Of a DNA stretch of 64,000 bases, positions 13,570 through 55,393 are shown piece by piece. The position numbers and the translations under genes were made by a program. The notes below the pieces were generated by a model. It saw only the letters and a list, made by a program, of their open reading frames with translations, did not search any database and was not told the origin of the DNA. The DNA comes from a virus, in IMG/VR virus record IMGVR_UViG_3300045993_001028. The stretch is one strand, 5' to 3'. Position 1 is the stretch's first letter, and every line of letters starts with the position of its first letter.

Positions 13570-14387
13570 CGGGAGGTCCGGTACTTCCAGAAGGCGAACG
13601 CCGCGATGGCGGCGGCGGTCAGCAGGAGGAGGGTGGTCGCCGACGACTTGCCGAGCAGCACGCTGCGGACGGTGTCGAGGTCGGTCGCGGCGACGCCTTG
13701 GCTCATGTCCATCACGACGCTCATGTCGGTGCCGGGCCAGCCGGGCGCCGAGGTCGGGTAGCCGTACTTGGCGTCGGCGGGGTTGTAGTAGCGCCCGTCG
13801 CCGACGTACTGCCAGAGGCAGAACTCGCCCTGCCGCCACCCGGCCTTGCTCATGTCGAGGTGCGGGCTCCACATCGACGAGAACCCCATGCGATCGGTGA
13901 CGCCGAGGTCGCGGACAAGGGCGCCGGTGTAGAGGATCGGCGTGACGCCGAGCGCGGCGCGGATCTTCGCGCAGAAGTCAGACGAGACGTCGACGATCTG
14001 CTGCGCGCTCGACCAGGACGAGCCCTCGAGGTCCCACGCCGGCGGCATGTCGCCGGCGCTGTCCCAACCGCCGGCGCGGTCGAGCGCGGCGAGCAGGAAG
14101 TCGGCCTGCGCGGTGCCGTCGCCGGGGCGCCCGAAGTGGTAGCAGCCGCGGAACCACGAGTCCCCGTAGCGCCCGCCGCCGGCGTCGCGCAGGCGCGGCC
14201 AGTTGTTCGTGAACCACGCGGGCGCATACTTGACGCCCTCGGTCGCCTTCAGGATGCACCCGACCATGTTCGCCGAAGCGGCGAGGGTGTCGAAGCGCGG
14301 CGCGGCGCCGGTGTTGTCGAGCTCGTAGATGTCGGGGAGGAAGAAGGCGGGCTGCCCGACGTCGCCCAGGCCGCGCAGGTAGCTCAC
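13566..14387 (-). CDS. GH25-like muramidase with C-terminal membrane anchor
   Basis: KATEG, GCYHF, PPAWDLE, PILYTG, LWQY; N-term MSYLRGLGD; C-term LLLLTAAAIAAFAFWKYRTSR. Confidence 0.85.
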   Translation of the reverse strand: MSYLRGLGDVGQPAFFLPDIYELDNTGAAPRFDTLAASANMVGCILKATEGVKYAPAWFTNNWPRLRDAGGGRYGDSWFRGCYHFGRPGDGTAQADFLLAALDRAGGWDSAGDMPPAWDLEGSSWSSAQQIVDVSSDFCAKIRAALGVTPILYTGALVRDLGVTDRMGFSSMWSPHLDMSKAGWRQGEFCLWQYVGDGRYYNPADAKYGYPTSAPGWPGTDMSVVMDMSQGVAATDLDTVRSVLLGKSSATTLLLLTAAAIAAFAFWKYRTSR

Positions 14388-15202
14388 GGCTTGCTCGCCA
14401 GGAACCGCCGCATCCGCGCCATGTTCTCGTCGGAGAGCGGGTTGTTGTCGGGCGCGGGGTTGCGCCGAGCGCGGCGGCCCGGGTTCGGCTTCAGCTTGGC
14501 GACCTCGCGCTCGACCATGTCGTAGACGCGCTCCCGGTCGGGGTCACCCGGCTGGCAGAGCAGATCGTCGAGCACCGAGGTGGTGAGGGTGCCCGGCGAG
14601 TCCGGGTAGCGGTCGCGCTGGCTGCGCATCCGCGCAACCGACCAGGCGACCTCGCGCTCGGTGATCTCCGCGGGCTTGACGCCGCGCAGGGCGTCGTCGG
14701 GACGCCGGCGGGCGCGGTCGGGCGGGTTGCGGCGCGGCGCCGGGTTCGGGAGCGCGACGACGCTGCCGCCGTCCCAGGAGAACGACGTCCCGTCGAAGCT
14801 GACCTCGAAGTTCGGGATGCTGACATGGAACCGCGCGTGGTTGTCGAACCACGAAACGCCGGAGCCGAGCGCCATGCTGGCGAGCGCGGATCCGAAGTCG
14901 TCCATGTCGATGCCCTTGGCGCGGGCGCGGCGCCGCGAGCCCGCCGGGTGCGCGGTGTGCTCGTCCTCGGCCGCTGCCATCATCGCGAGCATGCTGATCT
15001 GGGTCCGGTTCGACTCCTCGATGAGCTCGACGAGCGCCCACGCCGCCTTGTAGGCCGCCGCCGGCGTCTTCGGCGCGATGTCGTCCCAGTCCTGGCCGCT
15101 CCTCGCTCGGGCGACGCCGGGCGTGTTCTCGGCGTACTCCATGTAGGCGTACAGCCAGAGCGTGCGAGCCATGCCGTCGATCCCGTTCCAGTTGCGCGCC
15201 AT
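14384..15202 (-). CDS. Hypothetical protein with multiple NP motifs in a basic C-terminal part
   Basis: 272 aa; PNPAPRRNPP, KPNPGRRARRNPAPDNNP. Confidence 0.75.
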   Translation of the reverse strand: MARNWNGIDGMARTLWLYAYMEYAENTPGVARARSGQDWDDIAPKTPAAAYKAAWALVELIEESNRTQISMLAMMAAAEDEHTAHPAGSRRRARAKGIDMDDFGSALASMALGSGVSWFDNHARFHVSIPNFEVSFDGTSFSWDGGSVVALPNPAPRRNPPDRARRRPDDALRGVKPAEITEREVAWSVARMRSQRDRYPDSPGTLTTSVLDDLLCQPGDPDRERVYDMVEREVAKLKPNPGRRARRNPAPDNNPLSDENMARMRRFLASKP

Positions 15203-15203
15203 G

Positions 15204-15638
15204 TCAGACCTCGCGGGCGATGTTGTTGTCGATGACCAGTTTGAGCCCGCAGAGGCCGAGGCCGAAGTCCATCCGGCGCCCCTTGCTCTCGAGCTCCCAC
15301 GGGCACTCGAACGCCTCGACGTTGAGCTGGCCGCCGTCCTCGACCTGCCGCCGCGGGTCGTACTCGATCCGCTTCCGGTCGCCGCGGATCGTCGACATGC
15401 GAGCGTCGTTGAGCGGGCCGCATCGGGGGCACATCCAGTGGACCTGCATGGGCTCGCCGGGGTGCTGGTACACCTCGACGAAGATCATGCGGTCCTTGTA
15501 CCGGACGCGCGGCTTGCCGAGGGCGTTCGCGGTGAGGGCGATGTCACCCTGGCGGGTGAGCGGCCCGTCGCCGCGGAGGGCCGGGTCATCTCCGGCCAGG
15601 TGCTCGAGTTCTTCGGTTAGGGGGTTCAGCGTTGCCAC
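15204..15638 (-). CDS. Hypothetical protein, possible Zn-binding
   Basis: CPRC ... CPW ... C; TAACGT 6 nt before the GTG. Confidence 0.7.
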   Translation of the reverse strand: MATLNPLTEELEHLAGDDPALRGDGPLTRQGDIALTANALGKPRVRYKDRMIFVEVYQHPGEPMQVHWMCPRCGPLNDARMSTIRGDRKRIEYDPRRQVEDGGQLNVEAFECPWELESKGRRMDFGLGLCGLKLVIDNNIAREV

Positions 15639-15647
15639 CCCCCGACG

Positions 15648-15947
15648 TTACTTCTTCCGCAGGGCGAAGACCAGCACACCCAGGACCGCGACGCCGCCGA
15701 TCAGCAGCACGGGGGTGCTGATCGGAGAGGCCGCCGCCTGGACGTAGGTCGTGTTCTGCGGCTGCTTGCCGAAGATCGACGTGAGGGCGGCGAGCCCCTC
15801 CTTGAGGTAGTCGGTCGCCGGCGAGGTCAGCGTCGCGTTCTTGTCGACGCACTGGCCCGGCGGCAGGTTGCCGTAGACGAGGTTGGCGTCCCACTTCTGG
15901 TTGGGGCCGCAGCTCGAGGAATCGCCAAGGGTTTTCGCGTACGACAT
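15648..15947 (-). CDS. Small virion membrane protein (MSY..LGD, C-terminal TM)
   Basis: MSYAKTLGD...VLLIGGVAVLGVLVFALRKK. Confidence 0.8.
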   Translation of the reverse strand: MSYAKTLGDSSSCGPNQKWDANLVYGNLPPGQCVDKNATLTSPATDYLKEGLAALTSIFGKQPQNTTYVQAAASPISTPVLLIGGVAVLGVLVFALRKK

Positions 15948-16564
15948 CACGACCTCCGCAGGAGCAGCAGGGCGCCCAGCGCGAGCGCCCCGTAGATGAG
16001 CAGGTTACCACCCGTGACGGTGACGTTGGCGTTCGGATCGACCACGGGCGTCACGTCGATCTGGTCGATGGGGCCGACGTCGACGGTCGGGTCGACGGTG
16101 TAGCCGCCGCCTGAACCGCCCGAGCTGCCGCCGCCCGAGCTGCCGCCGCCCGAGCTGCCGCCGCCCGAGTCCGGGTTCGAGCTCGGTTGCTTCATCTCCT
16201 CGCCGACGACGCTGCCCCGCGGCTTGACCGGGGCGGGGGTGCGCGTCTTGATCTCTGGCGCGGCGGCGCCGCGCGTGGGCACGCCGCCGCCTGGGCGGAC
16301 GATCACCGGGCCGCGCCCCGGCCCGCGCCCTGGCCCGCGCCCTGGCGGCACGGGCGGCTTCGGCCAGCTCGGGCCGGGGTTCTTCGGGACGCCGGGCTCG
16401 AGGCGCATCGCGCCGAGCGTCTGCGTGGCGAGGATCTGATCACGCGCGGCCATGAGGTGGAGCGCGCGAGCCATCGCGATACGACGTGCGGGCGTGACGG
16501 CGTCGATGGTTCGCACCGCGCCGACGCCGCGCGTGTGCGCGTTGGTGTCGCGCGCGTAGCTCAC
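15947..16564 (-). CDS. Virion membrane protein with Pro/Gly low-complexity linker
   Basis: MSY..RGVGA..TLGA; (PGRG)3, (GGGSS)3; LLIYGALALGALLLLRRS. Confidence 0.8.
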   Translation of the reverse strand: MSYARDTNAHTRGVGAVRTIDAVTPARRIAMARALHLMAARDQILATQTLGAMRLEPGVPKNPGPSWPKPPVPPGRGPGRGPGRGPVIVRPGGGVPTRGAAAPEIKTRTPAPVKPRGSVVGEEMKQPSSNPDSGGGSSGGGSSGGGSSGGSGGGYTVDPTVDVGPIDQIDVTPVVDPNANVTVTGGNLLIYGALALGALLLLRRS

Positions 16565-16803
16565 TTGAAGATGCTCCCGCCGATCGAGCCGAGGCCGGCG
16601 GTCGGACCGAACATCTGGGTCGCCCGCGGGTCGACGCCCGAGCCGGCGCCCTCGGCCATCGCGGCGGCGACGTTCGGAATCGGCACCGAGCCGCCGATCT
16701 TCTCCGCCACCGCGGCGACCGCCTTGGCGGCGATGAACTGGGTGTAGATGATGTAGGCGCCGGCCGCGACGGCCCCGTAGGTCAACAGCTTCTTGGTGTC
16801 CAT
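16561..16803 (-). CDS. Small membrane protein
   Basis: N-terminal hydrophobic segment; C-term AGLGSIGG. Confidence 0.75.
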   Translation of the reverse strand: MDTKKLLTYGAVAAGAYIIYTQFIAAKAVAAVAEKIGGSVPIPNVAAAMAEGAGSGVDPRATQMFGPTAGLGSIGGSIFK

Positions 16804-16804
16804 G

Positions 16805-17170
16805 TTACCTGCTCCTGTTGCCGACGAAGAAGCCGGCGATGAAGGGGACGGCGAACACGGCGACGACGCCCAAGGCGGCGATCGTCGGGTGCTCGTAGAC
16901 GTAGGCGGCGGCGCGCAGCGGGCGCAGCACCTGTTCGGCGCCGATGCCCGGCTGCCCCGGCGGGATCTGCGGGCAGACGGGGACCTGGACGGTCGGCGGC
17001 TTGCCGAACACGGACGACAGGAAGCCGCGGTTCTTCCGCAGGGCCATGATCTGGTCGACGTGGCAGAGCGCCTCGGGGAGGTACGGGTCGACGGACCCCG
17101 ACATCCGCTTCACCGTCGAGAGCGTGTCGCTCCAGAGGTCGCCCATCCCGTTGCGGTTCGTGTAGCTCAT
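16805..17170 (-). CDS. Virion membrane protein (MSY..GMGD, C-terminal TM)
   Basis: MSYTNRNGMGD...IAALGVVAVFAVPFIAGFFVGNRSR; GGAG SD. Confidence 0.8.
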   Translation of the reverse strand: MSYTNRNGMGDLWSDTLSTVKRMSGSVDPYLPEALCHVDQIMALRKNRGFLSSVFGKPPTVQVPVCPQIPPGQPGIGAEQVLRPLRAAAYVYEHPTIAALGVVAVFAVPFIAGFFVGNRSR

Positions 17171-17189
17171 GGTGTTCTCCTCATCCTGG

Positions 17190-17271
17190 CGCCCTCGGGG
17201 CCGCCCTCGATTCTACCTGGGGACGCTTCTCCGGAGTCGTCCAGGTTTCGTCGAGGGCGGGCCCGGGGGCG
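17190..17271. repeat. 82-nt intergenic extended stem-loop / imperfect inverted repeat
   Basis: 17190-17210 pairs with 17251-17271 (19/21 Watson-Crick); inner stem 17216-17225 with 17238-17245; contains minus-strand TAGAAT. Confidence 0.8.
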
Positions 17272-17871
17272 TTAGGCTAGCTTGCGCTTGAGGAACCCCT
17301 TCGCGTCGTCGAGGATCCCGGACTTGTAGGTGACGTAGAGCAGCGCGGCGATGCCGCCGGCCTTGAGCCAGAACCCGTAGTCGGTGCAGGCGCCGGCCTG
17401 GATGCAGGCGTCCTTCTCCTTCTGCATCTGGACGTCGGCGTAGGAGCGGATCGCGGTCGTGACGGCGAGCAGGAGCCCGCCGACGATGACGATCGGCCAG
17501 ACCCACGGCGAGCTCGCCGAGAAGATGCCGCCGGTCGCGGTGGGCGTGGCCGGTCCGCCCGCGATGGCGAGCTGCGCCAGCTTGACGGCGGCGTCGGGGT
17601 CGACGCCGACGTTGTCGGAGGGCAGCGTCGCGGCGGCGTCGGGGAACGAGGCCGCGAGGAGCACGCGAAGCTGCGAGGCCAGCTTCTGCTCGGTGTCACG
17701 CGCCGAGGCGATGACCGACTGCGCGTAGGCGAGCGGCTGCTTCGTCGGCACGGCGCCGGAGGCGATCTTGTCGTTCCGCTGGCGGTAGGTCAGCCAGGAC
17801 GACAGCGACCGCTTCATCTTGTCGAGCTCGTGCTGCGCCTTGGCGACGTCGGAGGTGCTGATGGCGGACAT
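17272..17871 (-). CDS. Membrane protein with two C-terminal TM segments
   Basis: 199 aa; WVWPIVIVGGLLLAV and FWLKAGGIAALLYV. Confidence 0.8.
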   Translation of the reverse strand: MSAISTSDVAKAQHELDKMKRSLSSWLTYRQRNDKIASGAVPTKQPLAYAQSVIASARDTEQKLASQLRVLLAASFPDAAATLPSDNVGVDPDAAVKLAQLAIAGGPATPTATGGIFSASSPWVWPIVIVGGLLLAVTTAIRSYADVQMQKEKDACIQAGACTDYGFWLKAGGIAALLYVTYKSGILDDAKGFLKRKLA

Positions 17872-17874
17872 GGA

Positions 17875-18294
17875 TCACCACTCCCTCATGGCGAGGTAGA
17901 CGCCGAGCGCGGCGGCGGCGAGGACGAGCGCCTTGGGGAGGCCGAGGACCGAGCCCTCGAGCAGCCCGCCGCCGCCGGGCAGGCCGCGGGCGTCGCCGAA
18001 CTGGCGGATCGTGGTCGTGACCTCGCCGAGGTTTGCCGCGACGAACGAGGCGGGCGCCGCGAGCGCCTTGGCAGCGCGGACGAGCATGCCCTGTTCGGCG
18101 GCGACCTGGGCACGCTGTGCGTAGATGTTCGCCGCGATGATCGCGAGCGTCGCATCGAAGGGGCCGGTCGCCGCGACCTCGGGCGAGAAGCGGCGCACCT
18201 GGGCCCGCAGCGCGTCGACCTCGGGGTTCGACGCGCTGTCGCCCAGGCTCGCGCAGCGGCGGCCGGACGCGCAGGCGTGGCAGCAGGCCGGCAT
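17875..18294 (-). CDS. Virion membrane protein (Cys-rich N-term, LGD, C-terminal TM)
   Basis: MPACCHAC..CASLGDSASNP...ALVLAAAALGVYLAMREW. Confidence 0.8.
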   Translation of the reverse strand: MPACCHACASGRRCASLGDSASNPEVDALRAQVRRFSPEVAATGPFDATLAIIAANIYAQRAQVAAEQGMLVRAAKALAAPASFVAANLGEVTTTIRQFGDARGLPGGGGLLEGSVLGLPKALVLAAAALGVYLAMREW

Positions 18295-18298
18295 GGCC

Positions 18299-18931
18299 TT
18301 AGAGGTTGACGATCCGGTAGCCGATGAGGTCGACGTGGAGCGTGCCCTGGGTCGGGATGACCGTGGCGGCGTTCCACGTCAGCTTGTTGTAGGTCGGCAG
18401 GAACTGGATCGCCGAGTTCGGCGACCACAGCGTCGGGCACGCGCACTTGAGGAGGTTGTCCGGGCGCGAGAAGATCGGGCCGCGGGGCGCGTTCTGGAAG
18501 TTGCGCTGGGCGCCGCCGTCCTGGAGCTCGTACATCAGGTCGATGATGTCGGTGCCGTCCTGCTGGGTCGGCAGCGGGAAGGTGGACACCGGGCGCCACC
18601 GCTCGTAGTTGTCGGCGTTGGTCGGCAGCGTCGCGCGCCAGAGGACCATCGGGTAGTGGGTCATGACGAACGGGCCGTCCTGGCTCACCTGGATGAGGAT
18701 CGGGTTGCCACGCTTGCCCTCGTCGGACGAGGTGAACGTGACCTCGCCGGAGAGGACCGTCTCGATGCGGCGACCGGGGATCGCGTCGATCTCCTCGGTG
18801 ACGGTGCGCGGGCGCCCGGCGAGCTGGGCGATGATCGCCTGCTGCTGCTGCACGACGCTCTGCAGCGCGGCGGTGCGGCGGTCGAGGACGGCGGTTGCGG
18901 CGAGGAGCTTCTGGATGTTGGCGTCGGCCAC
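18299..18931 (-). CDS. Putative single-jelly-roll capsid protein 2
   Basis: GTG18931 with GGGAG SD; N-terminal coiled segment then beta-rich DGPFVMTH..LQDGGAQRNFQNAP..PTLWSPNSAIQF..LHVDLIGYRI; fold inferred. Confidence 0.55.
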   Translation of the reverse strand: MADANIQKLLAATAVLDRRTAALQSVVQQQQAIIAQLAGRPRTVTEEIDAIPGRRIETVLSGEVTFTSSDEGKRGNPILIQVSQDGPFVMTHYPMVLWRATLPTNADNYERWRPVSTFPLPTQQDGTDIIDLMYELQDGGAQRNFQNAPRGPIFSRPDNLLKCACPTLWSPNSAIQFLPTYNKLTWNAATVIPTQGTLHVDLIGYRIVNL

Positions 18932-19064
18932 GGTGGTTCTCCCAGGTAGGGGTTCTCCGCTTGCGCGGGATCTCAGGTGGATGGTCAGGAGGTTCCTGAT
19001 CGGAGCAGCGACCCGCGAAAAGGTCGCTGCCCCTGTCAGGGGCACGCTTGCGCGTGCCGCCCGA
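18932..19064 (-). promoter_or_regulatory. Structured intergenic RNA (four hairpins, two GCAA tetraloops)
   Basis: Stems 19041-19058 (7 bp), 19005-19030 (9 bp), 18985-18999 (6 bp), 18957-18968 (4 bp). Confidence 0.7.
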
Positions 19065-19640
19065 CTACTGCACGTCGCGGGTCTGCAGACCGTCGAGGAG
19101 GAACTTGATCTCCTTCTCGTCGTCGGTCGCGCCGCTGTTCAGCCCGTCGAGGGCCGACACCGAGCCCATCGCGTAGAACGACGCCTGGACGGCGAAGTTC
19201 TGGCGAACCGGCACGATGATCGGGCGGGCCAGCTTGAGGATGGCCTCCTGCGACGGGGTGCCGTTGGAGAACACCGACGTGGTCGCGTCGAGGCCCCAGA
19301 CGCCGCCGCCGGCGGGGAAGTACCAGCTCGGGGCCTGGAACATCGGCTTCTCGCCGACGATCAGGGTCCAGTAGAGCTGGCTGGTGACGTGGACGTAGTT
19401 CGCCCGGCGGTTGGTGCCGTTGAAGTACAGCCACGCGCGGAGCGCGAGGATGACGTAGGTCTGGTCCGACGCGAGCTGACCGGCCACCTGGAGGTTGGTC
19501 AGGGCGAGGTTACCGACGTTGCTGTTGCCGAACAGGTTGGTGGTCGACTGCAGCGCGGTGGTCGGGTTGCCGGTGGTGTGGACGAGCGTGTCCCAGAAGG
19601 GCTGGTGGCGACGCTCACGGACGTTGGCGATACGGGGCAT
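19065..19640 (-). CDS. Putative single-jelly-roll major capsid protein
   Basis: 191 aa beta-rich; RHQPFWDTL..LF..TNLQVAGQL..YVILALR..PIIVPVRQNFAVQ..IKFLLDG; CAGGAG SD; structured UTRs; fold inferred. Confidence 0.6.
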   Translation of the reverse strand: MPRIANVRERRHQPFWDTLVHTTGNPTTALQSTTNLFGNSNVGNLALTNLQVAGQLASDQTYVILALRAWLYFNGTNRRANYVHVTSQLYWTLIVGEKPMFQAPSWYFPAGGGVWGLDATTSVFSNGTPSQEAILKLARPIIVPVRQNFAVQASFYAMGSVSALDGLNSGATDDEKEIKFLLDGLQTRDVQ

Positions 19641-19747
19641 CTGAATCTCCTGTGCGTTTGGTTGGCCTGCTGCGGAAGTGCAGCGCGTGGCCTGGCGGGT
19701 GGCTCCCGCCGTTGGCTAGGTCGAGGTGTAGGGTGCGAGCGGGTCCT

Positions 19748-19767
19748 CGAGCGGCCGGAGCCGCTCG
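19748..19767 (-). promoter_or_regulatory. Stable cUCCGg tetraloop hairpin in the capsid leader
   Basis: cgagcggc-TCCG-gccgctcg on the minus strand (8-bp stem); second 6-bp stem at 19694-19710. Confidence 0.7.
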
Positions 19768-19771
19768 TTCC

Positions 19772-20959
19772 CTAGAACCCGCCGCGGAAGACGCCGGCGT
19801 AGAGGCCGCCGGGCGAGTCGAACGCCGAGGTCGCGTCCTCGATCTCGCTCGTGAACGAGCGGTTCGGGATCTGCCCCGAGAAGGACATCGGGGGGACCGA
19901 CCGGACGAGGGCGCTCTGCGAGAGGCCGCCGGGGATCTCCCCGAGCTCCTGCGAGAGGCCGAGCTCCTGCGACATGCCGAGCTCCTGCTCGATCCCGTCC
20001 ATGCCCGTCGAGACGTAGTCCGACGTGGTCAGGTAGTCCGAGGTCTGGACGTAGTCGGACAGGGCGCGATCGTAGATCCCGCCCATGCCGATCGCCGTCT
20101 TGACGCTCGCCGGGGCGAAGGCCGAGATGACCTCGGTCAGGAGGTTGATGCCGAGGCCGAGCATGATCTCGTCCTGGTGGGCGCGGAGGAACGACACCTT
20201 GCTCGAGGCGATCTGCGCGCCGACGAGCAGCGCACCAGCGAGGACCGGCCCCTGGAACTGGCCCAGGCTCGACACCTGGGACACGTTCGAGACGATCTGC
20301 TTCTGGATCAGCTTGCCGACGAGGATCGACCCGAGGACCGGCAGCGCGCGCTTGATCAGCGCGAGGATGCCCGCCATCGACGGGTTCCGCTTGTAGCGAC
20401 GCCGCGCCTTGCGACGCGCCTTCGCGTGGGTGACGTGCCGGCCCTTGCGGACCCGGTACCGGCGCGCGGTACGGCCGATGCGACGGTGGTGCCGACGCTT
20501 GCGGGCGTGCCCGAGGCGAGCCGCGGCCTTCCGGCCGCGCCGACGCCGCTTGGCCGGGTTGTGCGTGAACGGCTTGCGCTTGGAGGCGCCGGCGGCGGCG
20601 CGAGCCGCCGAGTATCGCTTGCGCGAGGCGGTCGACGGGCGACGCGGGCCCTTCATGCTGTTGCCAGCCTCGAACGGGTGCGCCTTGCGGAAGCGGCGGC
20701 CCTTCCAGCCCTTCTTGGCCGCCCGGCGCCGACGCCGGCGGACCGCGCTCTTGCGCGCGACCTTCCGGCGCTTCACGCGCCGCTTCGGCGCGGCGAGCCG
20801 GCGGCGACGCCGCGCATGCCCCAGCTTTGCCGCGGTGCGGCGGCCACGTCGCTTCTTGTTCTTACGCTTCGCCATCGGGTTGCTCCTCAAAGTGCCGACG
20901 CGAGCGCGCCCTTTGGCACGCTTGCCGTGGCCGGCGGGGTTGACGTACATGATCGGCAT
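19772..20959 (-). CDS. Arg/Lys-rich core-like protein with NP-delimited segments and C-terminal membrane domain
   Basis: Start ATG20959; four NP motifs bracket very basic blocks; C-term (SDYxxT)3 and (QELG)3 repeats. Confidence 0.8.
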   Translation of the reverse strand: MPIMYVNPAGHGKRAKGRARVGTLRSNPMAKRKNKKRRGRRTAAKLGHARRRRRLAAPKRRVKRRKVARKSAVRRRRRRAAKKGWKGRRFRKAHPFEAGNSMKGPRRPSTASRKRYSAARAAAGASKRKPFTHNPAKRRRRGRKAAARLGHARKRRHHRRIGRTARRYRVRKGRHVTHAKARRKARRRYKRNPSMAGILALIKRALPVLGSILVGKLIQKQIVSNVSQVSSLGQFQGPVLAGALLVGAQIASSKVSFLRAHQDEIMLGLGINLLTEVISAFAPASVKTAIGMGGIYDRALSDYVQTSDYLTTSDYVSTGMDGIEQELGMSQELGLSQELGEIPGGLSQSALVRSVPPMSFSGQIPNRSFTSEIEDATSAFDSPGGLYAGVFRGGF

Positions 20960-20989
20960 GTGTGTGAACCCCACCCCGAGGTTCGCCCC

Positions 20990-21017
20990 AACTCCTGTCA
21001 AGCCCCTTGTAGGAGTT
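20990..21017 (-). promoter_or_regulatory. TTGACA -35 inside inverted repeat AACTCCT-N14-AGGAGTT
   Basis: Minus-strand TTGACA at 21001-20996; the hexamer 17 bp downstream is CGGGGT (poor -10). Confidence 0.5.
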
Positions 21018-21566
21018 TCAGCGAAGGGCGAGGAACGTCGCGGCGACCGACGCGATCGTCATCGCGGTCAAGATCGACACCACGGCAACCTGGCGTAACG
21101 CAAACGACGACCGCCTCGCGACCTGCGGCACCGGCCGATGGTGGTGCGGATCGGTGATCGTGAGGAGTGGCTGCGTTTGCTGGCGTTCGATCCGCTGCAT
21201 GAGCCCGCTCGTCTGCGTCTCGAGGTTCGAGACGCGGACGAGCAGCGACTGGTCGGTGCCCTCGAGGCCTCGGACCCGCGTCGAGAGGTCGGCCACCGCG
21301 ACGGTGAGGTTCGACTGGGCAACCTCCAGCTTCTTGACGTCGCCGCGGAGCTCGATCTGGTCGCGCTCGATGCGCCCGAGGCGCGGCGACACATCCTTCA
21401 CGAGCAGCTCGCGCGTGATCTTGGTGTCCTCGGCGACCAGCCGCATCAGCCGATGCAGCACGATCGGGTTGCCGTCGTCGAGGTCATCGCGTGTGACCGG
21501 CCTGTAGGCCACCGGCTGGTGGTCGACGGGCGTGAACTCGCCGGTGCGCGATCCCTCGTCGTTCAT
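21018..21566 (-). CDS. Coiled-coil protein with C-terminal TM
   Basis: Heptad region then VAVVSILTAMTIASVAATFLALR. Confidence 0.75.
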   Translation of the reverse strand: MNDEGSRTGEFTPVDHQPVAYRPVTRDDLDDGNPIVLHRLMRLVAEDTKITRELLVKDVSPRLGRIERDQIELRGDVKKLEVAQSNLTVAVADLSTRVRGLEGTDQSLLVRVSNLETQTSGLMQRIERQQTQPLLTITDPHHHRPVPQVARRSSFALRQVAVVSILTAMTIASVAATFLALR

Positions 21567-22021
21567 CGGAGATACCCGCCCAGGACCGCGCCGACGATCG
21601 CCGCGATGGCGACGCCGGCCGCCTTGATGATGAGGGGGAGGCGGTCGATCTTCTTGAGCCGCGCCTCGTGCTCCAGCTTCTCGTGGTCGAGCGCGGCCTG
21701 GCGCCGTGCCTCACGTTCGGCGCGGTCGGCAAGCGTCGCCTCGAGCAAGGTGTCGACCTTGCCGTCGAGCCCGGCCACGGCGATCCGCACGCTGGTGATC
21801 ACCTTGCCGTGCTCGTCCTGGCCGACCTCGAGCTTCGACAACCGGTGGTCAACGCTGCTGACCGCCGACGAGGCGTGCTTGGTCCGGCGCGCGATGACCT
21901 CGAGCAGCGGCTCGCCAGGGTGGGTCGCGGGCTCGCCCCAGTCGTCGTCCTTGACGGGGGCTGCGAGCTGCGCCGCGACGCCGGCCGGCGGCGTCTTAAC
22001 GTGGCGGATGTCGCGGCTCAC
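21563..22021 (-). CDS. Coiled-coil protein with C-terminal TM
   Basis: GTG22021 (GTGA overlap); IIKAAGVAIAAIVGAVLGGYLR. Confidence 0.75.
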   Translation of the reverse strand: MSRDIRHVKTPPAGVAAQLAAPVKDDDWGEPATHPGEPLLEVIARRTKHASSAVSSVDHRLSKLEVGQDEHGKVITSVRIAVAGLDGKVDTLLEATLADRAEREARRQAALDHEKLEHEARLKKIDRLPLIIKAAGVAIAAIVGAVLGGYLR

Positions 22022-24509: not shown

Positions 24510-24516
24510 CGGGTCC

Positions 24517-25098: not shown

Positions 25099-25108
25099 CG
25101 GGATCCTT

Positions 25109-25537: not shown

Positions 25538-25541
25538 GGGG

Positions 25542-26999: not shown

Positions 27000-27000
27000 G

Positions 27001-47650: not shown

Positions 47651-50600
47651 ATGCGTCGTGCGATGATCCCGAACCCGCCGCCCCGGAACGCCCGCTACAT
47701 CATCCGGCGGCAAGGCGAGGCGGACAGCCACGAGTTCCGATCGCTCCCAGACGCGATCGAGATCGCCCGCGACGACGGCAGCGAAGACGGCGGTGACATC
47801 TGGATGTACCCGGCGGGGTGGCCCGACGGCGCCGTGCTGATCGCGTCCTACGGGCACGACGACGACATCACCACGATCGAGATCCGCCGCCCCGACGACA
47901 TCAAGCCCGCCGACCTGCGGGAGCTCGCGGCCAACGGCGACACCAGCGTGGTCATGCCCGGCGGCCAGCCCTACGCCCCGCCGGCGCGGCGCACCCGGGC
48001 CGCCGCGGCGCCGACCGGCGCCCGGCGCCTCACCCGCGCCGAGATGACCGCGGTCATCAACCGGCGCATCAGCCTGGTCGACGCGATCGTTGGCGCGCTC
48101 GCGGCGGCGGACCTGCCGGTCGACAGCGTGCCGCGGCGCAAACGGTTCGCCGCCCGCCCGAACCGCCGCACCGGCCTCGTTCATGTCGACCTCGAGATCA
48201 GCATCCCGGGCAACACGCTCGTCGTGAAGCTCGCGTTTGAGCGCAACTCGTCGACGTACACCCCGACGGTGACGTGGGCCGGTGACGACGACGAGGACGT
48301 CGAGATGCCGATGCTGGCGAGCCTGGGCGACGTCGCGCGGATCGTCTCCGCGGTGCAGCGGGCCCGGGACGCGGCGGCGCATGGCGCGCAGATGGAGGCG
48401 CTGGAGGCGCCCGAGCGGACCGGATCCCCCGAGGCGACGCCGATCACGCCCACGATGCTTAGGCACATCCGCAACCGGATGTCGGCGGCTTCGGCGTTCT
48501 ACGAGCGCGAGACGGACCACGACACCGAGGAGGGCGACATCATCCTGGGTTCCGCCATCGACGAGCTGCACACCGCGCTCGCGGGCGAGTTCACGCACCT
48601 CACGTTTCCCGACGTGGAGATCGAGCACGACAACTGGGTCTGGACCACCATCGACCAGGGGGGGCGCATCACCCGCGTTGTGAACACGCACCACGCGGCC
48701 GGCGGCTACGGCATGCTGCCGCGCGAGTTCTATCTCCGCGTCGAGAACGACGGGAGCAGCTCGTTCCACCGTGCCGACCCTGGCGGCGCCGACGCTTCCG
48801 ACGCCGGACGCTGGTCGGGCACCGAGGGCATGAACATGGTGGGCACCTCGAACGACCTCGAGGAACTCATCGCGCGCCTGCGCAACGACCGCGACATGCT
48901 CGAGGCGGGCGCGGCGCGCGTTCAGCGGGCGATCGACTCGGTGACGCCCGCCGCTTGGGCCATCGGGCGCGAGATCGGTGCGCCCGAGCCCGCTGATCCG
49001 ACGATCAACGACCGCGAGCTGCTCGACCTCATCGACTCCCTTGGGTTCACGCGCCCCGAGGGCGACCGGATGTCGATCCGCCGGAACGGGCAGCGCGGAC
49101 GGCTGACGATCAACATCAGCGATGAAAACGAGCACCGCTACCGCATCCGATGGGAGGGCGTCGCCGGCATCTACGTCGGGCACGTCTGCACGGGTGACGA
49201 CGTCCAGCGGATCGGCGTGTGGCTCCGGTCGATTGCGAACCTCACGCCGCCGCACAGCATCTACGAGCAGCGGTTCCACGAGGACGAGCTCCGCGTGATG
49301 ATCGAGGCCAAGCTGCCGCCGGGCGCGCACCTGGGCCCGTGGATCGAAGCCAACAACCGCGCCGGCACGACGAAGGCGCGCATCTACCGCGGGTCCGCGC
49401 CGGGCTCGTCGAACGCCGAGATCGACGTCCACATCGAGTGGAGCCAGCCGGTCAACAATGTCTACCCGGGCACCATCATCTGGCCGACGCAGATCGGCTT
49501 CACGACCGCCGGCCACACGCCCGGCATCGGCGACGAGGACGACTGGGACCTGCTCGAGACGATCGACGCCGACGACGGCGAAACCCTGGGCGAGTGCCTT
49601 GACGGCATCCTCGACGGCGTCGACATCGGCCGCAAGCTTGATGCGGCGTCGACCAGCTTCAACCGCGAGCTCATCCTCGAGCGGCTGCGGATGCTCGACG
49701 GCGAGATCGACTGCTTCGACACGACGCCCGACATGACGCACTGGTACGGGACGGCACCGTTTTCGTCGCACTTTGCGATCACGCTGCGGGGCGGGGTGCC
49801 GCGAAGCATCCGGATCGAGACGTCGTTCGAGCCGATCACGGGCGAGGTCGTCGGTGTGACCGCCCGCGTTTACACCATCAGCGACGGCACGCTCCTCGCG
49901 TCGCCGACGATCGCGCCGCCGAACCTCGGCACGGACGGGTACTGTGCCTACATCGTGGCGTGGGTCCGCGGGCTTGCCACGGGCGGCACCGCTGGCGCCA
50001 CCGCAGCCGTGGCGTCCTTCGTGCCCCGTGCCGACGGCAGCGCCTCCGTCATCGAGGCTGTGCGCGAGTCCTTCGCCACCACCGTCGCCGATCCGACGCC
50101 CCGCGTGGTGCCGCCGGCTGCGCGGTCGTTCCTCTCGAACGTCGAGGACCGCGACGGGTGGCGCGACTTTGGCCTGACGACCGTCGGATCGAAGGCCCTG
50201 CTGCGCATCGGCACCCGCAACTACTGGTTCTGGTGGCGCGACGACGAGGTCCACATCGGTCAGGGCCCCGTCTCGCCGCGCCAGCCGGCGGTCGAGGAGC
50301 TCTACGTCACCGCTGAGTGGGGAGGGGCCGAGGACGCCGCCCTCCAGGTTGCGGACGGGCTCGTGAGCAACGGCGGCGGGGATGTGCGCGGCGCGGCTCT
50401 AACCGCCAGCGCCGGCTCCGGCCTCGTGCGCCAAGGCGCCGGCGCCGCCCCGCCTGCTGACGCCATCGCCGAGGTCCGTGCCAGCCTCGCCCGCCTTGGG
50501 ATCCGCCTGCTGAACGGCGCTCCTGACGCGGACGGGGCGGTGCGCTTCCACAACGGCATGCTCGTCCGCGCTCCGGCGGGATCGCGCTCAACGCGGCGCC

Positions 50601-53600
50601 CCGGCTTCACCGAGATCACGCCGCAGCCTGACGGATCGTTCCAGGTCGCGGTCCTGAGCGACGATGGCACCACCCTCGTCCCCTCCTCGCTGCCGAGCGT
50701 GGCGACCGTCGTCGGCCTCATCGAGGCTCTCCGCAACACCGCTCGCCCCAGCGGGGACCAGGAGTTCGACGCGCAGCTCGACCGCGGCGGGCTGTTCTTC
50801 CAGTGGCTGCTCGCCGCGGACGTCGGGTCACGCGATCCAACGGACCACACCGCCGGCGTCATGGGCCTGCGCGACCTGCTGTGCCCTCACGACGACGGCG
50901 CGGTCGGCGTCACCCGCCACCGCACCACGCAAGACGGCAAGGTGGTGCAGCTCCGCTGTGACTTCCCGACCCGCGTCGACCTGTCGATCAACTACCCGCC
51001 CGGTGCTCCCGCGCAGATCCTCATGCAGAGCTACGACGTCCCGCAGTGGGGCGGGAGCCCGAGCGTCAGCCGCACCTCGCACGACATCACCCCCGACTTC
51101 CTCGACGCCGTGCGCGCCGTCCTGGCGAACGACCTCGCGGCCTATCGCGCCGCGGCCGGGCGGGTCGCGAACGCCGCCGCGTATCCCGCGGCGCCTCCGG
51201 TGACCTCCACCCCTGCACCCCCGGCCGGAGACGGCATCCCCGCGCACCTCGTCGACCGGCGCAGCGACCTCGAGCTCGACCTCGAGCTCCTCGAGGCGTG
51301 GGTCGGCGAAACCAGCGGCGCCGTCACCCTCCGGGTCATCGAGCGCACCGCCACCCGCGCCACCGTCTACCTCGGGACCGAGAACGGCTTCCTCCAGGTG
51401 ACCAGGAGGTCCGACGCCACGCTGTGGACGGGCATCGAGGGTCGCCACGGCGAGGAGCGGTCCGATGAGCTGGACAACGCCGACGACGACGGCGTCAGCT
51501 TCCGCAACCTCGCCGCGATGCTCTACCACCTCACGCACCGCACCATGCGGCACCGGGACCAGTTCCCGACGGTGCCGCTGACCGCGTCGAACGCGAACCG
51601 CGCGATGCGTGCCTCGTTCCCGCTGCCCGAGATCCGCCTCGAAGGGCTCCCCGGTCGCTTGCTGCCCCAGGCAGTAGTCGAAGTCCTCGAGGATCTCAAC
51701 TTCCCGGTCGTGCCGAACGATCACGGCACCAGCAGCAACGTTGGCTCGTTCGACGTCTACGTCACCGCGCCGGGCTCCACGGCGCCGCGTGGCTGGGTGA
51801 ACCTCCGCACCACCGCGAACGGGATCTCGCTCTCGACGATCAACGGCGTCACCGAAGTCTCCGAGGCGACCCTCCCCGAGTACCTCGTCCGCGTGCAGCG
51901 AGGAGAGGCGGCACTGCGTCGCCCCCTCGGCATGCACTTCGCGGGAGCCCTCGATCAGTTCCTCCTCCGAAACGACCTCTACCTCGCGCCGCCGGTCGAC
52001 AACAACGCGCGTCGGCGCACCGGCGACATGACGCCGCTGCGCGACGTGTACAGGCTCGTCCGCCCCGACGGCACGGCGACCGGCGTGGAGATCACGAAGA
52101 TCGACGACAACCTGTTCACGCTGTACATGGACGGCGCCCTGCGCGGCAACCGGGCGTTCTTCTCGCCCGACGAGAGCTACCACAGCCGCGTCCACTCCAG
52201 AGGGGACGCCTTCGCCGCGATCGAGCGGTTCCTGGCCGGCGGCGGCAACGAGGCCCCCGACGTGGCCGCGCCGCGCCAGGTCACCGGCCTGGTCCAAGGC
52301 GCCTCTATGGCGCCCATCCAGCCGTTCCTCACCTTCGCCGAGCGCGCCGGCGTCAACATCAACGACCTGCGCCGGCTGCTCGTGACCACGAACGCGCACC
52401 CGTCGCCGAACCATCCGACCAGGGACTTCGACCGCGACGGCGGCGACCTCCTGGCCGACATCACCATCGCGCTCGCGATGCCGCTCACGCCGGGTGGCCC
52501 TTCGGAAGAGGTGATGATCAGCCCCCAGCAGAGGCGGCGGTCGTTCTGCATCTACGGGGCCCACCGCGGCGAGCAGCACGTCCACGCCACCGACCTCGTC
52601 GCCTGGCTCGAGGCCCGCGGCGTGACCGGCCGCGCCCGCACGGCGCCGGCCGCGCCGGCTGGACCGCCGCCGCGCCGCCGCCAGATGGCGTCGGCGGCAC
52701 CGCTCATGGCTCGCGTGAGCGAGGAGTACGGGCTGTCGTTCCGGCAGCTCCTGCTCGATGCGATCCCGGGCGCCTGGTACTACCCCGACGACAACGAGCT
52801 CGCCTTCCCGATCAGCGGCAACCGCGAGGCGTCCCTCGTGTTCGACGAGGGCTACGACCCCGAGCGGCGCGTGCTGACGCGCTCGGGCGCGTTCTCGATC
52901 TTCACCCAGGACGGGGACACCCTGCTCTCGGGCGCCGACCTCGGGACGACGCTGCGCGAGCTCCGGCTGCTGACCGGAGCGCGGGCGCCGGCGCCGACGG
53001 TCACCGCGGCAGCCCCGCGGCCCGCCGAGGCCGCGCAGCGCGACGCGCTCGCCGAGCTCGCCGCGGCCTCGCGGCAGACGCCCATGTCGCGCCTGTCGCC
53101 GAACCACCAGTACCCGACCATCTTCGAGTCCCAGGCGAACTTCGAGGCGCACCCGTCCGGCAACCGCGTGACGTTCCAGATCGGCGCGGAGCGGATCACC
53201 GTCAACGTCGAGCACGACAGCGCCGCGGTGCGCGTCGGCAGGCCGCGCTACCGCGTCGACGCCCCCTACGGCAGCGGGTTCAGCGGCAGCTTCCTGACCG
53301 CCGAGGAGATGCTGGAGCACCTCCGGCTGCCTCGCTTCCCCGGCGAGGAGGCGGCGGTGCCGGACGTCCTCGACATGCCGCGGATCAACGAGCCGCTGCT
53401 CGGGGCGCTCGTCGACGCGCTCTCGACCCGGCGCAACCTCTTCGTTCACGCGCCGAACCTGCGGGGCGCGCCGACGTGGCTCGCGAGGATCGCGGCCAGG
53501 CTGCTGGGGCCGAACGTGCCAGCGGTCCTCCTGTCGGGGCGCCAGAGCGAGGACAACTGGAACATCGAGTCGGCCCGCGGCGGCGTGCTGTTCCTGCCGC

Positions 53601-55393
53601 ACCTGGGGCGCCAGAGCGTGGACGACCTCGGCGAGGGCATCACCCTCGAGCGCCGCCGCGCCATCATCCGGGCGGTCAACGCGATCCCCGCCGAAGAGCG
53701 ACCGCTGCTGATCGCCTCGTCGGTCATGCCGATGACCGGCGCCGTCGAGGGCTTCCCGCTTCGCACGACCACGGAACAGAGCCTATCCAATCCGCGCAAC
53801 GAGGTCGCCGGCGGCCCGCTGCGGCGGCAGATCGCCGCGGCCCGCGCCGGGTCGTCGACCGCGACGCCTGCGCTCGCCGAGGGCGACGACTTCGCGGCCC
53901 GCGCCGCGCTGCTCGAGCTCGACACGCCGCGGCGGCGCGACGAGTGGGGCGCGGCCGGGCAGCCCGCCGGCCCGCCGACGCCGGTCTACCTCGACACCCA
54001 CCAGCACGATCGCAGCATCGCGCTCGCGCGGACGATGCCGGTCGGCACCCGGGTGCAGACGATCACGCCCGTCCCCGTCACGGTGAAGGTCGACCAGGGT
54101 GAGATGTACGGGCCCTACGAGCGCCCCGAGGAGATCGTCTCGCTCCCCCGTGGCGCGGTCGGGCGGGTGTCGGAAAACCACATCATCGACGAGCCGACGC
54201 CGCACCACAGCCACCTGTTTGTCGTCACGTTCGACCGCCCCTACCATGGCAACACCGATCGCCTGGCGTGGGCCGCGGTCGACGATGAGGTCACGGGCCC
54301 GCGCGTTCGCTACGACAGCCTCCCGTACCAGATCGGTCCGGCAGGCGAGCTCGAGGAGCGGATCGCGGTGCTCGAGTTCGAGCCGCCGCGCGACCCGCGC
54401 TCGCTCTCGCCCGAGGACCGCACCGAGGCGTTCCTCAAGCTGGTCGAGCCCGGCTCGCGCGTCGAGACGAAGAAGAAGCTGGTCCGCGGCCGGGACATCC
54501 GCCACGACTTCCGCGCCGGCGCGATCTCGTCGTTCCCCGCCCACACCACCGGCGTGGTGACCATCAAGACCCCCTACCGCTTCGCGATCGAGCTCGACAA
54601 CGGCGCGATGCTGGAGTGGGGCCCCCTCGAACGTGAGAGGATCGGCGATGCCCTGGACATCGAGTCGGAAGGAGCCGTGCGCGCCCGTATGATCGAAAAC
54701 CCTCCCTGGACCACCCAGCTCCTCGCCAAACACCTCGAGAAGCTCGAGGAAGAGTGCCCGTCGAAGTGGCTGCCGAAGCTCAAGCACGTCCACAGCCACT
54801 ACAGCAACGTCATCGGCAAGTACCGGGAGTACGGCTGCGGCGCCTACGGCTGCGTCTTCCCGACGCTCGACAAGGACGTCGTGCTCAAGGTCACGACCGA
54901 CGACAGCGAGTTCGAGTTCGCGAACGACATCAACGGTGACCTGCCGGTCGCCGTCTGCGTCGACTACCACCTCGTCGCCGAGCTCCCCGAGAAGCACAAG
55001 GGATCGAAGGTCTACCTACTGTGGCGCGACAGCGCCGACCGCGTCGGCGAGCTCGACAAGGTGATCAGCGAGGCCGGGCGTGACGGCGACGCCGCCGAGG
55101 CCGCGGTCACCGCGCAGCACGCCGCCGCCCAGGACGCGACGAACATGATCTGGGCGAAGAAGGACGCGACGTCGCAGATCGAGGCCTGGAAGGTCAAGTG
55201 CCGTGAGATGGGAGCCCGGGTGCCCGAGCTACGGGAGCTCGCCGACGGGCTCCTGCGGAACCTCGAGGAGGCCGGCGTCTTCTTCGGCGACATTCACGGC
55301 GGCAACATCGGGCGCGTCAACGGGCGCTGGCTGATCGTCGACCCGGGCAACATCAGCGTGTTCCCCCGCGAGAAACGGTGGAAGTCGAAGTAG
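47651..55393 (+). CDS. 2580-aa polyvalent protein with degenerate AAA+-like segment and C-terminal protein-kinase-like domain
   Basis: Continuous codon bias; ESARGGVLFLPH (~53570-53600); GCGAYG, VVLKV, GDIHGGN, IVDPG (~54830-55350). Confidence 0.85.
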   Translation: MRRAMIPNPPPRNARYIIRRQGEADSHEFRSLPDAIEIARDDGSEDGGDIWMYPAGWPDGAVLIASYGHDDDITTIEIRRPDDIKPADLRELAANGDTSVVMPGGQPYAPPARRTRAAAAPTGARRLTRAEMTAVINRRISLVDAIVGALAAADLPVDSVPRRKRFAARPNRRTGLVHVDLEISIPGNTLVVKLAFERNSSTYTPTVTWAGDDDEDVEMPMLASLGDVARIVSAVQRARDAAAHGAQMEALEAPERTGSPEATPITPTMLRHIRNRMSAASAFYERETDHDTEEGDIILGSAIDELHTALAGEFTHLTFPDVEIEHDNWVWTTIDQGGRITRVVNTHHAAGGYGMLPREFYLRVENDGSSSFHRADPGGADASDAGRWSGTEGMNMVGTSNDLEELIARLRNDRDMLEAGAARVQRAIDSVTPAAWAIGREIGAPEPADPTINDRELLDLIDSLGFTRPEGDRMSIRRNGQRGRLTINISDENEHRYRIRWEGVAGIYVGHVCTGDDVQRIGVWLRSIANLTPPHSIYEQRFHEDELRVMIEAKLPPGAHLGPWIEANNRAGTTKARIYRGSAPGSSNAEIDVHIEWSQPVNNVYPGTIIWPTQIGFTTAGHTPGIGDEDDWDLLETIDADDGETLGECLDGILDGVDIGRKLDAASTSFNRELILERLRMLDGEIDCFDTTPDMTHWYGTAPFSSHFAITLRGGVPRSIRIETSFEPITGEVVGVTARVYTISDGTLLASPTIAPPNLGTDGYCAYIVAWVRGLATGGTAGATAAVASFVPRADGSASVIEAVRESFATTVADPTPRVVPPAARSFLSNVEDRDGWRDFGLTTVGSKALLRIGTRNYWFWWRDDEVHIGQGPVSPRQPAVEELYVTAEWGGAEDAALQVADGLVSNGGGDVRGAALTASAGSGLVRQGAGAAPPADAIAEVRASLARLGIRLLNGAPDADGAVRFHNGMLVRAPAGSRSTRRPGFTEITPQPDGSFQVAVLSDDGTTLVPSSLPSVATVVGLIEALRNTARPSGDQEFDAQLDRGGLFFQWLLAADVGSRDPTDHTAGVMGLRDLLCPHDDGAVGVTRHRTTQDGKVVQLRCDFPTRVDLSINYPPGAPAQILMQSYDVPQWGGSPSVSRTSHDITPDFLDAVRAVLANDLAAYRAAAGRVANAAAYPAAPPVTSTPAPPAGDGIPAHLVDRRSDLELDLELLEAWVGETSGAVTLRVIERTATRATVYLGTENGFLQVTRRSDATLWTGIEGRHGEERSDELDNADDDGVSFRNLAAMLYHLTHRTMRHRDQFPTVPLTASNANRAMRASFPLPEIRLEGLPGRLLPQAVVEVLEDLNFPVVPNDHGTSSNVGSFDVYVTAPGSTAPRGWVNLRTTANGISLSTINGVTEVSEATLPEYLVRVQRGEAALRRPLGMHFAGALDQFLLRNDLYLAPPVDNNARRRTGDMTPLRDVYRLVRPDGTATGVEITKIDDNLFTLYMDGALRGNRAFFSPDESYHSRVHSRGDAFAAIERFLAGGGNEAPDVAAPRQVTGLVQGASMAPIQPFLTFAERAGVNINDLRRLLVTTNAHPSPNHPTRDFDRDGGDLLADITIALAMPLTPGGPSEEVMISPQQRRRSFCIYGAHRGEQHVHATDLVAWLEARGVTGRARTAPAAPAGPPPRRRQMASAAPLMARVSEEYGLSFRQLLLDAIPGAWYYPDDNELAFPISGNREASLVFDEGYDPERRVLTRSGAFSIFTQDGDTLLSGADLGTTLRELRLLTGARAPAPTVTAAAPRPAEAAQRDALAELAAASRQTPMSRLSPNHQYPTIFESQANFEAHPSGNRVTFQIGAERITVNVEHDSAAVRVGRPRYRVDAPYGSGFSGSFLTAEEMLEHLRLPRFPGEEAAVPDVLDMPRINEPLLGALVDALSTRRNLFVHAPNLRGAPTWLARIAARLLGPNVPAVLLSGRQSEDNWNIESARGGVLFLPHLGRQSVDDLGEGITLERRRAIIRAVNAIPAEERPLLIASSVMPMTGAVEGFPLRTTTEQSLSNPRNEVAGGPLRRQIAAARAGSSTATPALAEGDDFAARAALLELDTPRRRDEWGAAGQPAGPPTPVYLDTHQHDRSIALARTMPVGTRVQTITPVPVTVKVDQGEMYGPYERPEEIVSLPRGAVGRVSENHIIDEPTPHHSHLFVVTFDRPYHGNTDRLAWAAVDDEVTGPRVRYDSLPYQIGPAGELEERIAVLEFEPPRDPRSLSPEDRTEAFLKLVEPGSRVETKKKLVRGRDIRHDFRAGAISSFPAHTTGVVTIKTPYRFAIELDNGAMLEWGPLERERIGDALDIESEGAVRARMIENPPWTTQLLAKHLEKLEEECPSKWLPKLKHVHSHYSNVIGKYREYGCGAYGCVFPTLDKDVVLKVTTDDSEFEFANDINGDLPVAVCVDYHLVAELPEKHKGSKVYLLWRDSADRVGELDKVISEAGRDGDAAEAAVTAQHAAAQDATNMIWAKKDATSQIEAWKVKCREMGARVPELRELADGLLRNLEEAGVFFGDIHGGNIGRVNGRWLIVDPGNISVFPREKRWKSK

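Follow-up and report, generated by a model that had tools for sequence, protein, structure and literature searches.

The window considered here, the 64,000 nucleotides of the viral record IMGVR_UViG_3300045993_001028 that were analyzed, is most of a genome whose contig measures 75.6 kb, and its GC content is 70-71% along the whole length. On the minus strand lies a predicted virion module, and within it a gene for a hyperbasic protein, here called core-like, in which the dipeptide Asn-Pro (NP) recurs amid clusters of Arg and Lys. The original prediction, made from the sequence alone, was that basic-flanked NP marks core-like proteins and effector enzymes for the interior of the virion. The motif is real, is conserved in the virus family in the core-like protein and in other basic proteins of the virion module, and is concentrated where these proteins carry protamine-like arms or tails. 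Nothing found indicates that NP serves as a cargo address on enzymes.

Genes were called with our own codon log-odds model, and starts within Arg-rich regions are weakly determined. Open reading frames (ORFs) of at least 50 amino acids number 81 and together make up 94% of the window. The virus is a phage, uncultivated, high in GC, and apparently tailless. It is rich in small membrane proteins, and the virion module abounds in small proteins that have basic ends and a hydrophobic anchor at the C-terminus. Recognizable genes encode collagen-like fibers, glycosyltransferases, two GH25 lysozymes, ParB, a RadC-JAB protein, GP88-like and PcfJ-like proteins, a tyrosine recombinase, and a protein with a weak transglutaminase-core match. 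Pfam and PHROGs offer no family for most of the virion module, including the four NP-bearing proteins of chief concern (the 272-residue, core-like, short paralogous, and membrane-type proteins of Table 1). Relatives of the virus comprise five IMG/VR contigs (55-86 kb, three with terminal repeats), which were fetched whole, one contig from a metagenome-assembled genome (MAG) at NCBI, and eight contigs of 68-88 kb from GTDB MAGs (L037-L044).

Table 1. Features of the window, and counterparts of the 272-residue protein in relatives.
Feature	Coordinates	Strand	NP codons	Remarks
Virion module	13566-30496	minus		mostly proteins without Pfam or PHROG family; virion location predicted
272-residue protein	14384-15202	minus	14741-14746, 14723-14728, 14480-14485, 14456-14461, 14438-14443	variable slot at end of virion core module; five NP
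Its equivalent in G003	44161-45822
Its equivalent in G004	24845-26341
Its equivalent in L034	16649-18252
Its equivalent in L037	16451-17629
Its equivalent in L041	14112-15209
Capsid candidate	19065-19640			the family's most conserved gene, 64-90% identical across 13 relatives
Core-like protein	19772-20959	minus	20936-20941 (MPIMYVNP), 20876-20881 (LRSNP), 20555-20560 (THNP), 20381-20386 (RYKRNP, junction)	395 residues from ATG 20959
Short paralog	22018-22371	minus	22339-22344	117 residues; N-terminus MKKHRRYRRNP
Membrane-type protein	23874-24509	minus	24174-24179	tail starts at LVPNPARRRK
Transglutaminase-fold Cys-His-Asp protein	27379-27915	minus		head of virion module
RadC-like JAB protein	39802-40560	plus	39835-39840	Pfam RadC 1.1e-21; N-terminal extension MAKKIRPRPVRNPGPG
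GP88-like protein	40557-42314	plus		TTNPAP, TVNPAP, VTNPP; none basic-flanked
J-domain paralog	44033-45310	plus	45287-45292	tail IPKQNPRRSRS
PcfJ-like gene	45307-46799	plus	45319-45324 (N-terminus V/M-KKRNP), 46767-46772 (C-terminal tail KKENPATRRRAGR)	two frames: 45307 to about 45770, then 45768-46799
Giant protein	47663-55393	plus		2576 residues; 3 NP versus 5.9 expected

Asn-Pro in the core-like family

The core-like protein begins with a 193-residue arm (57 Arg, 26 Lys, and a single Asp or Glu), continues with hydrophobic helices, and ends in acidic SDY/ELG repeats. The NP at the junction of the basic arm and the hydrophobic domain is invariant in 17 homologs, in which the mid-arm x-N-P-[SGA]-R-R-R-R and the N-terminal MPIMYVNP are also conserved. 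These sites stand as conserved islands within low-complexity arm sequence that otherwise cannot be aligned, and 64 of the 81 Asn residues in the 17 arms precede Pro (79%, versus 6% expected).

A wider search used a profile built only from the domain that follows the junction, hence free of the motif, and gave 224 cluster representatives (50% identity) at E <= 1e-3. Among the 116 that have upstream sequence, the junction reads NP in 106 and retains its Asn in 114, and eight of the ten junctions other than NP read NG, NS, NA, NF, or NI. The arms of these representatives amount to 19.6 thousand residues, in which 402 of 581 Asn precede Pro (69%; 5-6% expected), while Ser-Pro and Thr-Pro are at background (3-6%). 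The junction conforms to R-x-R-[MY]-R-[RS]-N-P-[GSA]-G and NP sites taken together to [YML]-R-[RS]-N-P-[ASG]; the N-terminal M-P-[IL]-x-[YF]-[VI]-N-P is found in 59 representatives, with VNG variants occurring. Arms of the family are 42% Arg plus Lys. The number of sites differs between proteins: the core-like protein of relative G004 (31470-32933; L004 8144-9211) has five tandem RRYRRNPR units and homolog P0017 has ten NP sites. The motif thus gains copies through tandem duplication. In the core-like arm, as in the tail of the membrane-type protein described below, Asn is used almost only as Asn-Pro.

In the AlphaFold2 (AF2) model of the core-like protein (mean pLDDT, the predicted local distance difference test score, of 62), helices begin exactly at Pro28 and Pro135, and the junction NP falls in a loop (188-195) between two long helices (152-187 and 196-225). 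The pLDDT of the junction is 52-64, and no compact fold surrounds the loop.

Another NP is conserved away from basic residues, at the C-terminus of the protein (19785-19830): the family-wide D-N-P-G-x-L-Y-x-G-I-F-R-G-G-F, which reads DSPG in the window's copy.

Frequency and placement of the motif

Every NP string quoted in the original prediction is present in the window. Asn makes up 2.8% of residues, and NP irrespective of context occurs 54 times, where 33.4 are expected (about 1.6-fold). This excess is largely generic, since it is about 1.5-fold in phages phiC31 and Mx8 and 1.06-1.31-fold in samples of four high-GC MAGs (these two phages and four MAG samples stand in for the host proteome as background). 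One might then suppose that there is no motif, NP being a generally favored dipeptide and the list of examples having been picked from a proteome rich in Pro and Arg. Several of the listed examples are indeed at background, and phiC31 has three instances of [RK][RK]NP where 0.2 are expected. That supposition is nonetheless very improbable as a general account. Compared with shuffles within proteins, the window has 5 [RK][RK]NP (0.4 expected), 7 NP.{0,2}[RK][RK] (1.0), and 5 NPAP (0.3), counts that none of 300 shuffles reached, and [RK][RK]NP is similarly in excess in relatives G001 (5 versus 0.3), G004 (6 versus 0.5), and G005 (3 versus 0.5). Controls in which Gln, Asp, Ser, Thr, or His replaces Asn, or Ala, Gly, or Leu replaces Pro, are flat. 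A strict motif, defined as NP with at least three basic residues among the four preceding or the five following positions, has 50 sites per 177 thousand residues in the virus family and 4 per 146 thousand in the high-GC background (Fisher p 2.6e-9). It remains in excess if core-like proteins are set aside (34 sites per 173 thousand residues; p 4.6e-6 versus background) and if sites are counted per basic cluster (34 of 193 in the family, 4 of 81 in the background; p 0.004). Given these figures and the constancy of NP at the junctions and of Pro after Asn in the arms of divergent homologs, the absence of a motif is refuted for the families of the core-like, short paralogous, membrane-type, and 272-residue proteins, and it stands for the NPs of the GP88-like and giant proteins and for the J-like tail.

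By the looser measure of the original prediction ([RK]xNP or PNP per thousand residues), the enrichment foreseen for the virion core was borne out: its 1.83 lies above both the bacterial (0.31) and the high-GC phage (0.61) backgrounds. The middle block has 1.18, the giant protein 0.39, the fiber block 0.22, and the replication block 0. Most of the signal is contributed by the virion module, through the core-like protein, the short paralog, the basic tail of the membrane-type protein, and the linkers of the 272-residue family. Basic proteins of the window from outside the virion module (32841, 58019, and 46774) have runs of Arg and Lys without NP. The six window proteins that bear the strict motif show zero overlap with the classes marked by MSY..LG or by a C-terminal transmembrane (TM) segment.

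As to placement, NP does occur at domain boundaries, namely the core-like junction and the linkers of the 272-residue family, as had been claimed. The accompanying claim that it favors termini fails, as NP in the terminal 16-residue windows occurs 8 times against 7.0 expected, and neither NP nor basic-flanked NP is enriched at termini across six genomes. Codons at NP sites vary (AACCCG, AACCCC, AATCCG, AACCCT, AACCCA) and selection therefore acts on the protein; a signal at the level of DNA is rejected on the same grounds.

Other carriers in the virion module

The short paralog matches positions 168-261 of the core-like family, which comprise the junction and membrane domain (hhalign probability 94.8%, E 5e-8), and therefore does not provide an independent case. 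Its RRYRR..PAP context recurs, without Asn, at the N-terminus encoded by 22856-23599 (MSYHPTRRYRRPAPRP). The membrane-type protein has a C-terminal tail of 101 residues with 27 Arg, 18 Lys, and no Asp or Glu. Its homolog in L034 has KLKNNPARRRR at the same junction, and homologs in G002-G004 have no tail at all. NP followed by a run of Arg is also found at extreme C-termini or directly after the ends of TM segments in several small proteins unrelated to one another, namely L041_13125 (...KNPARRRR), L041_6418 (...SNPARRRR...), L042_3926, and G004_29593.

In the family of the 272-residue protein, two NP positions are conserved as linkers, the first after an N-domain with W(D/E)GG and the second further on, and the homologs differ in their C-terminal domains. 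A weak receiver domain follows the first NP in G002-G004, and another domain precedes it in L041. The slot, which comes after the homolog of the gene at 15204, is variable, combining a shared N-domain with different C-terminal domains, and in L034 a RadC gene occupies it. The arrangement is reminiscent of a delivery domain whose cargo can be exchanged. At the equivalent position, G001 has a non-basic protein with an acidic tail (G001_6759), in which there are four R-[RS]-N-P-x-G sites, partly common to L034 (L034_17182).

Enzymes and putative effectors

Of the tags proposed for enzymes, that of RadC survives in part. RadC is present only in the window and in L034, where the gene lies inside the virion module, and in both it carries a basic N-terminal extension with NP (MARKLKIPMLGAARANPP in L034); two genomes lend weak support, and a match by chance has a probability of about 1 in 15. 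A search for homologs gave one distant match only, and RadC is absent from G001-G005. The PcfJ-like protein is in the same position: NP is found at both ends in the window and in G005, whose ortholog (a single ORF of 470 residues, about 35% identical to that of the window) has the ends MRKNKCVNPK and ERENPRRRR, and support from two genomes is again weak. A search of five MAGs for further orthologs gave no PcfJ-like protein. The string given earlier as MKKRNP exists as V/M-KKRNP at GTG 45307, in a frame different from that of the ORF with the PcfJ domain, so that reading the whole gene requires a change of frame near 45768. The change of frame could be a frameshift (from sequencing, mutational, or programmed) or could reflect two overlapping genes.

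The remaining examples fare worse. The KQNPRRSRS tail of the J-like protein is an appendage that neither the paralog at 35622 nor any of the five homologs has. The NPs of the GP88-like protein are not conserved, two NPAP stem from one internal duplication, and they were judged to lie outside the motif. Those of the giant protein (MIPNPP and MIENPP) were judged to be chance, as NP is below expectation there and has no counterpart in relatives; MIENPP, moreover, exists but is internal (residue 2343) rather than terminal. Most of the enzyme examples originally put forward are judged to be chance, and the motif is doubtful for the effector set.

Two features of these genes deserve mention in their own right. 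The HPD of the J domain reads NPD in the J-domain paralog (residues 391-393, 45203-45211; ELAFDANPDRGGS) and is kept as HPD in 35622-36176 and in all five relatives. With NPD, the paralog may fail to stimulate DnaK. The duplication at the start of the GP88-like gene (40581-40730) is of a 23-residue unit, AYPSAREMNRK[FL]GVTLT[TV]NPAP, with a weak match to HTH_50.

According to the original model, basic-flanked NP is an address read by a component of the virion, loading JAB, PcfJ-like, J-like, and other proteins for injection, and would form a two-address cargo system together with the LG/TM tag. The motif is indeed found on some 8-10 unrelated families of the virus group, concentrated in the virion module and separate from the MSY..LG/TM class, and one might point to the RadC of L034 with its extension, to the paired ends of two PcfJ-like orthologs, and to the 272-residue family, whose N-domain is connected by NP linkers to C-terminal domains of different kinds, as a delivery domain would be to its cargo. 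NP, however, lacks enrichment at termini, and most sites are repeats inside one structural protein, something that a tag would not require. The RadC and PcfJ-like cases come from two genomes each, the NPs of the J-like tail, GP88-like protein, and giant protein are unconserved or at background, and no candidate receptor was identified. This model is accordingly judged quite improbable.

The virus group

The eight relatives L037-L044 are spread over MAGs of at least six phyla, and the MAG bins from which relatives came include Galbitalea, Peribacteria, Gemmatimonadota (twice), Thermomicrobiales, Myxococcales, Kiloniellales, and Deltaproteobacteria. These assignments are mutually inconsistent; L037-L044 are therefore almost certainly mis-binned free viral genomes, and MAG taxonomy points to no host. 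The two most conserved genes, with 53-90% identity across the five IMG/VR contigs, are the capsid candidates at 19065 and 18299. The AF2 model of the former is all-beta and poor (pLDDT 58), and Foldseek gave it only weak matches of the jelly-roll type (TNF/C1q, picornavirus, PCV2, SH1); the profile of the major capsid protein candidate had no match among PDB sequences. A 559-residue protein had no match by tblastn against 50,697 phage records. Literature searches on this virus group and on the Asx-Pro turn found nothing useful.

Discussion

The reading favored here, with a probability of about 45%, is that NP acts as a boundary or hinge, separating the Arg clusters within arms and tails that condense DNA. 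Asn would end one helix and cap the next, and Pro would start the next (an Asx-Pro turn), with NP marking off each Arg cluster and hinging the basic arm or tail to a hydrophobic or folded domain. The arms may line the inner face of an internal membrane and there neutralize packaged DNA. The unit of NP and Arg run would have been appended, as tail or linker, to unrelated proteins of the virion module and to a few enzymes (PcfJ-like, RadC, and one J-domain paralog), probably tethering the protein that hosts it to DNA. Any address would then be the Arg run, and NP its punctuation. The helix starts at Pro28 and Pro135 and the junction loop in the AF2 model fit an element that stops one Arg-rich helix, starts another, and serves as hinge between arm and hydrophobic domain, and the variable tandem copy number would be as in DNA-binding repeats.

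Several observations weigh against this reading. A helix cap should accept Ser, Thr, or Asp, yet Ser-Pro and Thr-Pro are at background in the arms and Asn persists at nearly every junction. The motif at the junction exceeds a cap in length. A similar motif occurs fourfold in the non-basic G001_6759, where condensation of DNA cannot explain it, and the N-terminal MPIMYVNP, conserved and hydrophobic, is no element for binding DNA. Strict sites are no nearer to hydrophobic segments than positions drawn at random from the proteins that bear them (10 of 50 lie near a hydrophobic 15-mer, versus 8.8 expected); the narrower idea, that NP is always the hinge from a membrane helix to a basic tail, is rejected on this count. 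Also, the AF2 model is of low confidence, and the DNA binding and virion location of the core-like protein are themselves predictions. From the specificity for Asn, the extended junction motif, the sites in a multi-domain protein that is not basic, and MPIMYVNP, it follows that Asn appears to be read specifically, and that makes cleavage a strong rival.

In that rival account, which is less probable than a hinge and on balance unlikely, NP, or Asn alone, is a site of maturation cleavage, either by Asn-dependent self-cleavage of the kind carried out by viral asparagine peptide lyases or by a virion protease. Arms would be cut into protamine-like peptides and freed from the hydrophobic domain, and tags or linkers would be trimmed off multi-domain cargo. 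Viral cleavage sites after Asn include N|A in nodaviruses, N|F in tetraviruses, N|S in poliovirus, and N42|P43 in reovirus mu1, and variants of these types are seen where Asn outlasts Pro at the junction, to which may be added the VNG variants at the N-terminus. The sites are conserved islands amid unalignable sequence, they occur at domain boundaries of multi-domain proteins with shuffled C-terminal domains and in the non-basic pair G001_6759 and L034_17182, and position -3 tends to be hydrophobic and position +2 small. Also in favor are a conserved Cys-His-Asp protein at the head of the module and a bacterial precedent, since autoproteolysis at Asn-Pro is documented in RsgI (PMC10328401). 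However, the known cuts by asparagine lyases need a folded active site, and the sites here are in basic arms predicted to be disordered or helical. Ten sites in a single arm, or tails of 4-8 residues past the site, would yield products without obvious use.

The Cys-His-Asp protein is the only candidate protease. Its match to Pfam Transglut_core (E 0.001) is below the cut-off, and CDD, SHV, and LDPVA are invariant in its 12 homologs. It fits the separate LG[DA]/ELG motif better and may serve that motif instead, so that cleavage at NP would require a second specificity. In G005 (6583-8076; L021), the protein carries an insert of about 330 residues that ends in ...VSN just ahead of the invariant catalytic CDD and has the look of an intein interrupting the active site.

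A fuller version of the cleavage account is less probable again: Asn as the scissile residue of virion maturation, freeing protamine-like peptides onto the genome, detaching the hydrophobic domain, and releasing enzymes (JAB, PcfJ-like, and receiver-domain proteins) that had been loaded by way of NP-delimited basic linkers. If true, it would give a second, DNA-directed cargo address beside the LG/TM membrane class, in a phage with a nucleoprotein core.

To our knowledge, bacteriophages package naked DNA, and we know of no protamine-like core protein described for any of them. Nucleoprotein cores with protamine-like proteins are found in adenoviruses, some archaeal viruses, and eukaryotic giant viruses. 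The phage family described here, widespread in the environment (the 224 clusters of core-like proteins, with genomes of 68-88 kb), conserves a hyperbasic protein linked to a hydrophobic domain, and the near-invariant Asn-Pro of its arms offers a short, mutable handle on condensation, maturation, and release of the genome, as well as on the question of whether enzymes travel with the DNA. If Asn is a cleavage site, Asn-dependent capsid maturation would be extended to double-stranded DNA phages.

Comparison with known systems

The capsid targeting sequence of T4 is alike in idea, a short terminal peptide on unrelated proteins that end up inside the capsid. It is strictly N-terminal, ends in L/I-x-E, and may be removed by the head protease, whereas NP lacks terminal enrichment and its copies are mostly internal, being terminal only in RadC and the PcfJ-like protein. 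Readings of NP as 2A-like skipping (D[VI]ExNPGP), as a Tat signal, or as NPTH were rejected, the first because there are only two bare NPGP (VPKNPGPS and PVRNPGPG) and the bacterial context opposes it, the others on consensus.

Asparagine peptide lyases cut themselves at Asn, as in reovirus mu1 (Asn42-Pro43), the coat proteins of nodaviruses and tetraviruses, and FlhB/YscU (NPTH, which occurs in no window protein). They share with the phage proteins an invariant Asn between a nucleic-acid-binding or anchoring part and a hydrophobic part, with latitude in the next residue. They differ in that their sites lie in folded domains and that there is no homology; cleavage of the phage proteins is a proposal.

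Adenoviruses encode basic, DNA-condensing virion proteins (pVII and pX/Mu) along with a cysteine protease, as the phage does with its putatively condensing proteins and its cysteine-protease-like gene. The adenoviral system, which includes the basic "sled" peptide pVIc, is alike also in that a hydrophobic segment comes after a basic one and that other virion proteins bear short basic tails. The adenoviral protease cuts at (M/I/L)XGX-G or (M/I/L)XGG-X, a consensus that NP sites do not fit, and there is no sequence similarity.

Finally, the arms may be compared with protamines and with SPKK and AT-hook repeats. The consensus of the repeats is Ser/Thr-Pro-basic-basic or Arg-Gly-Arg-Pro, and that of the arms is Asn-Pro: 22 thousand residues of arm contain 438 NP, 22 [ST]P[RK][RK], and 1 RGRP. 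The phage arm differs further in being joined to a hydrophobic, probably membrane-associated domain, and its binding to DNA is a prediction. What it shares with all of these is an extreme content of Arg and Lys with few acidic residues, and clusters of Arg split by a short turn containing Pro, in a variable number of tandem copies.

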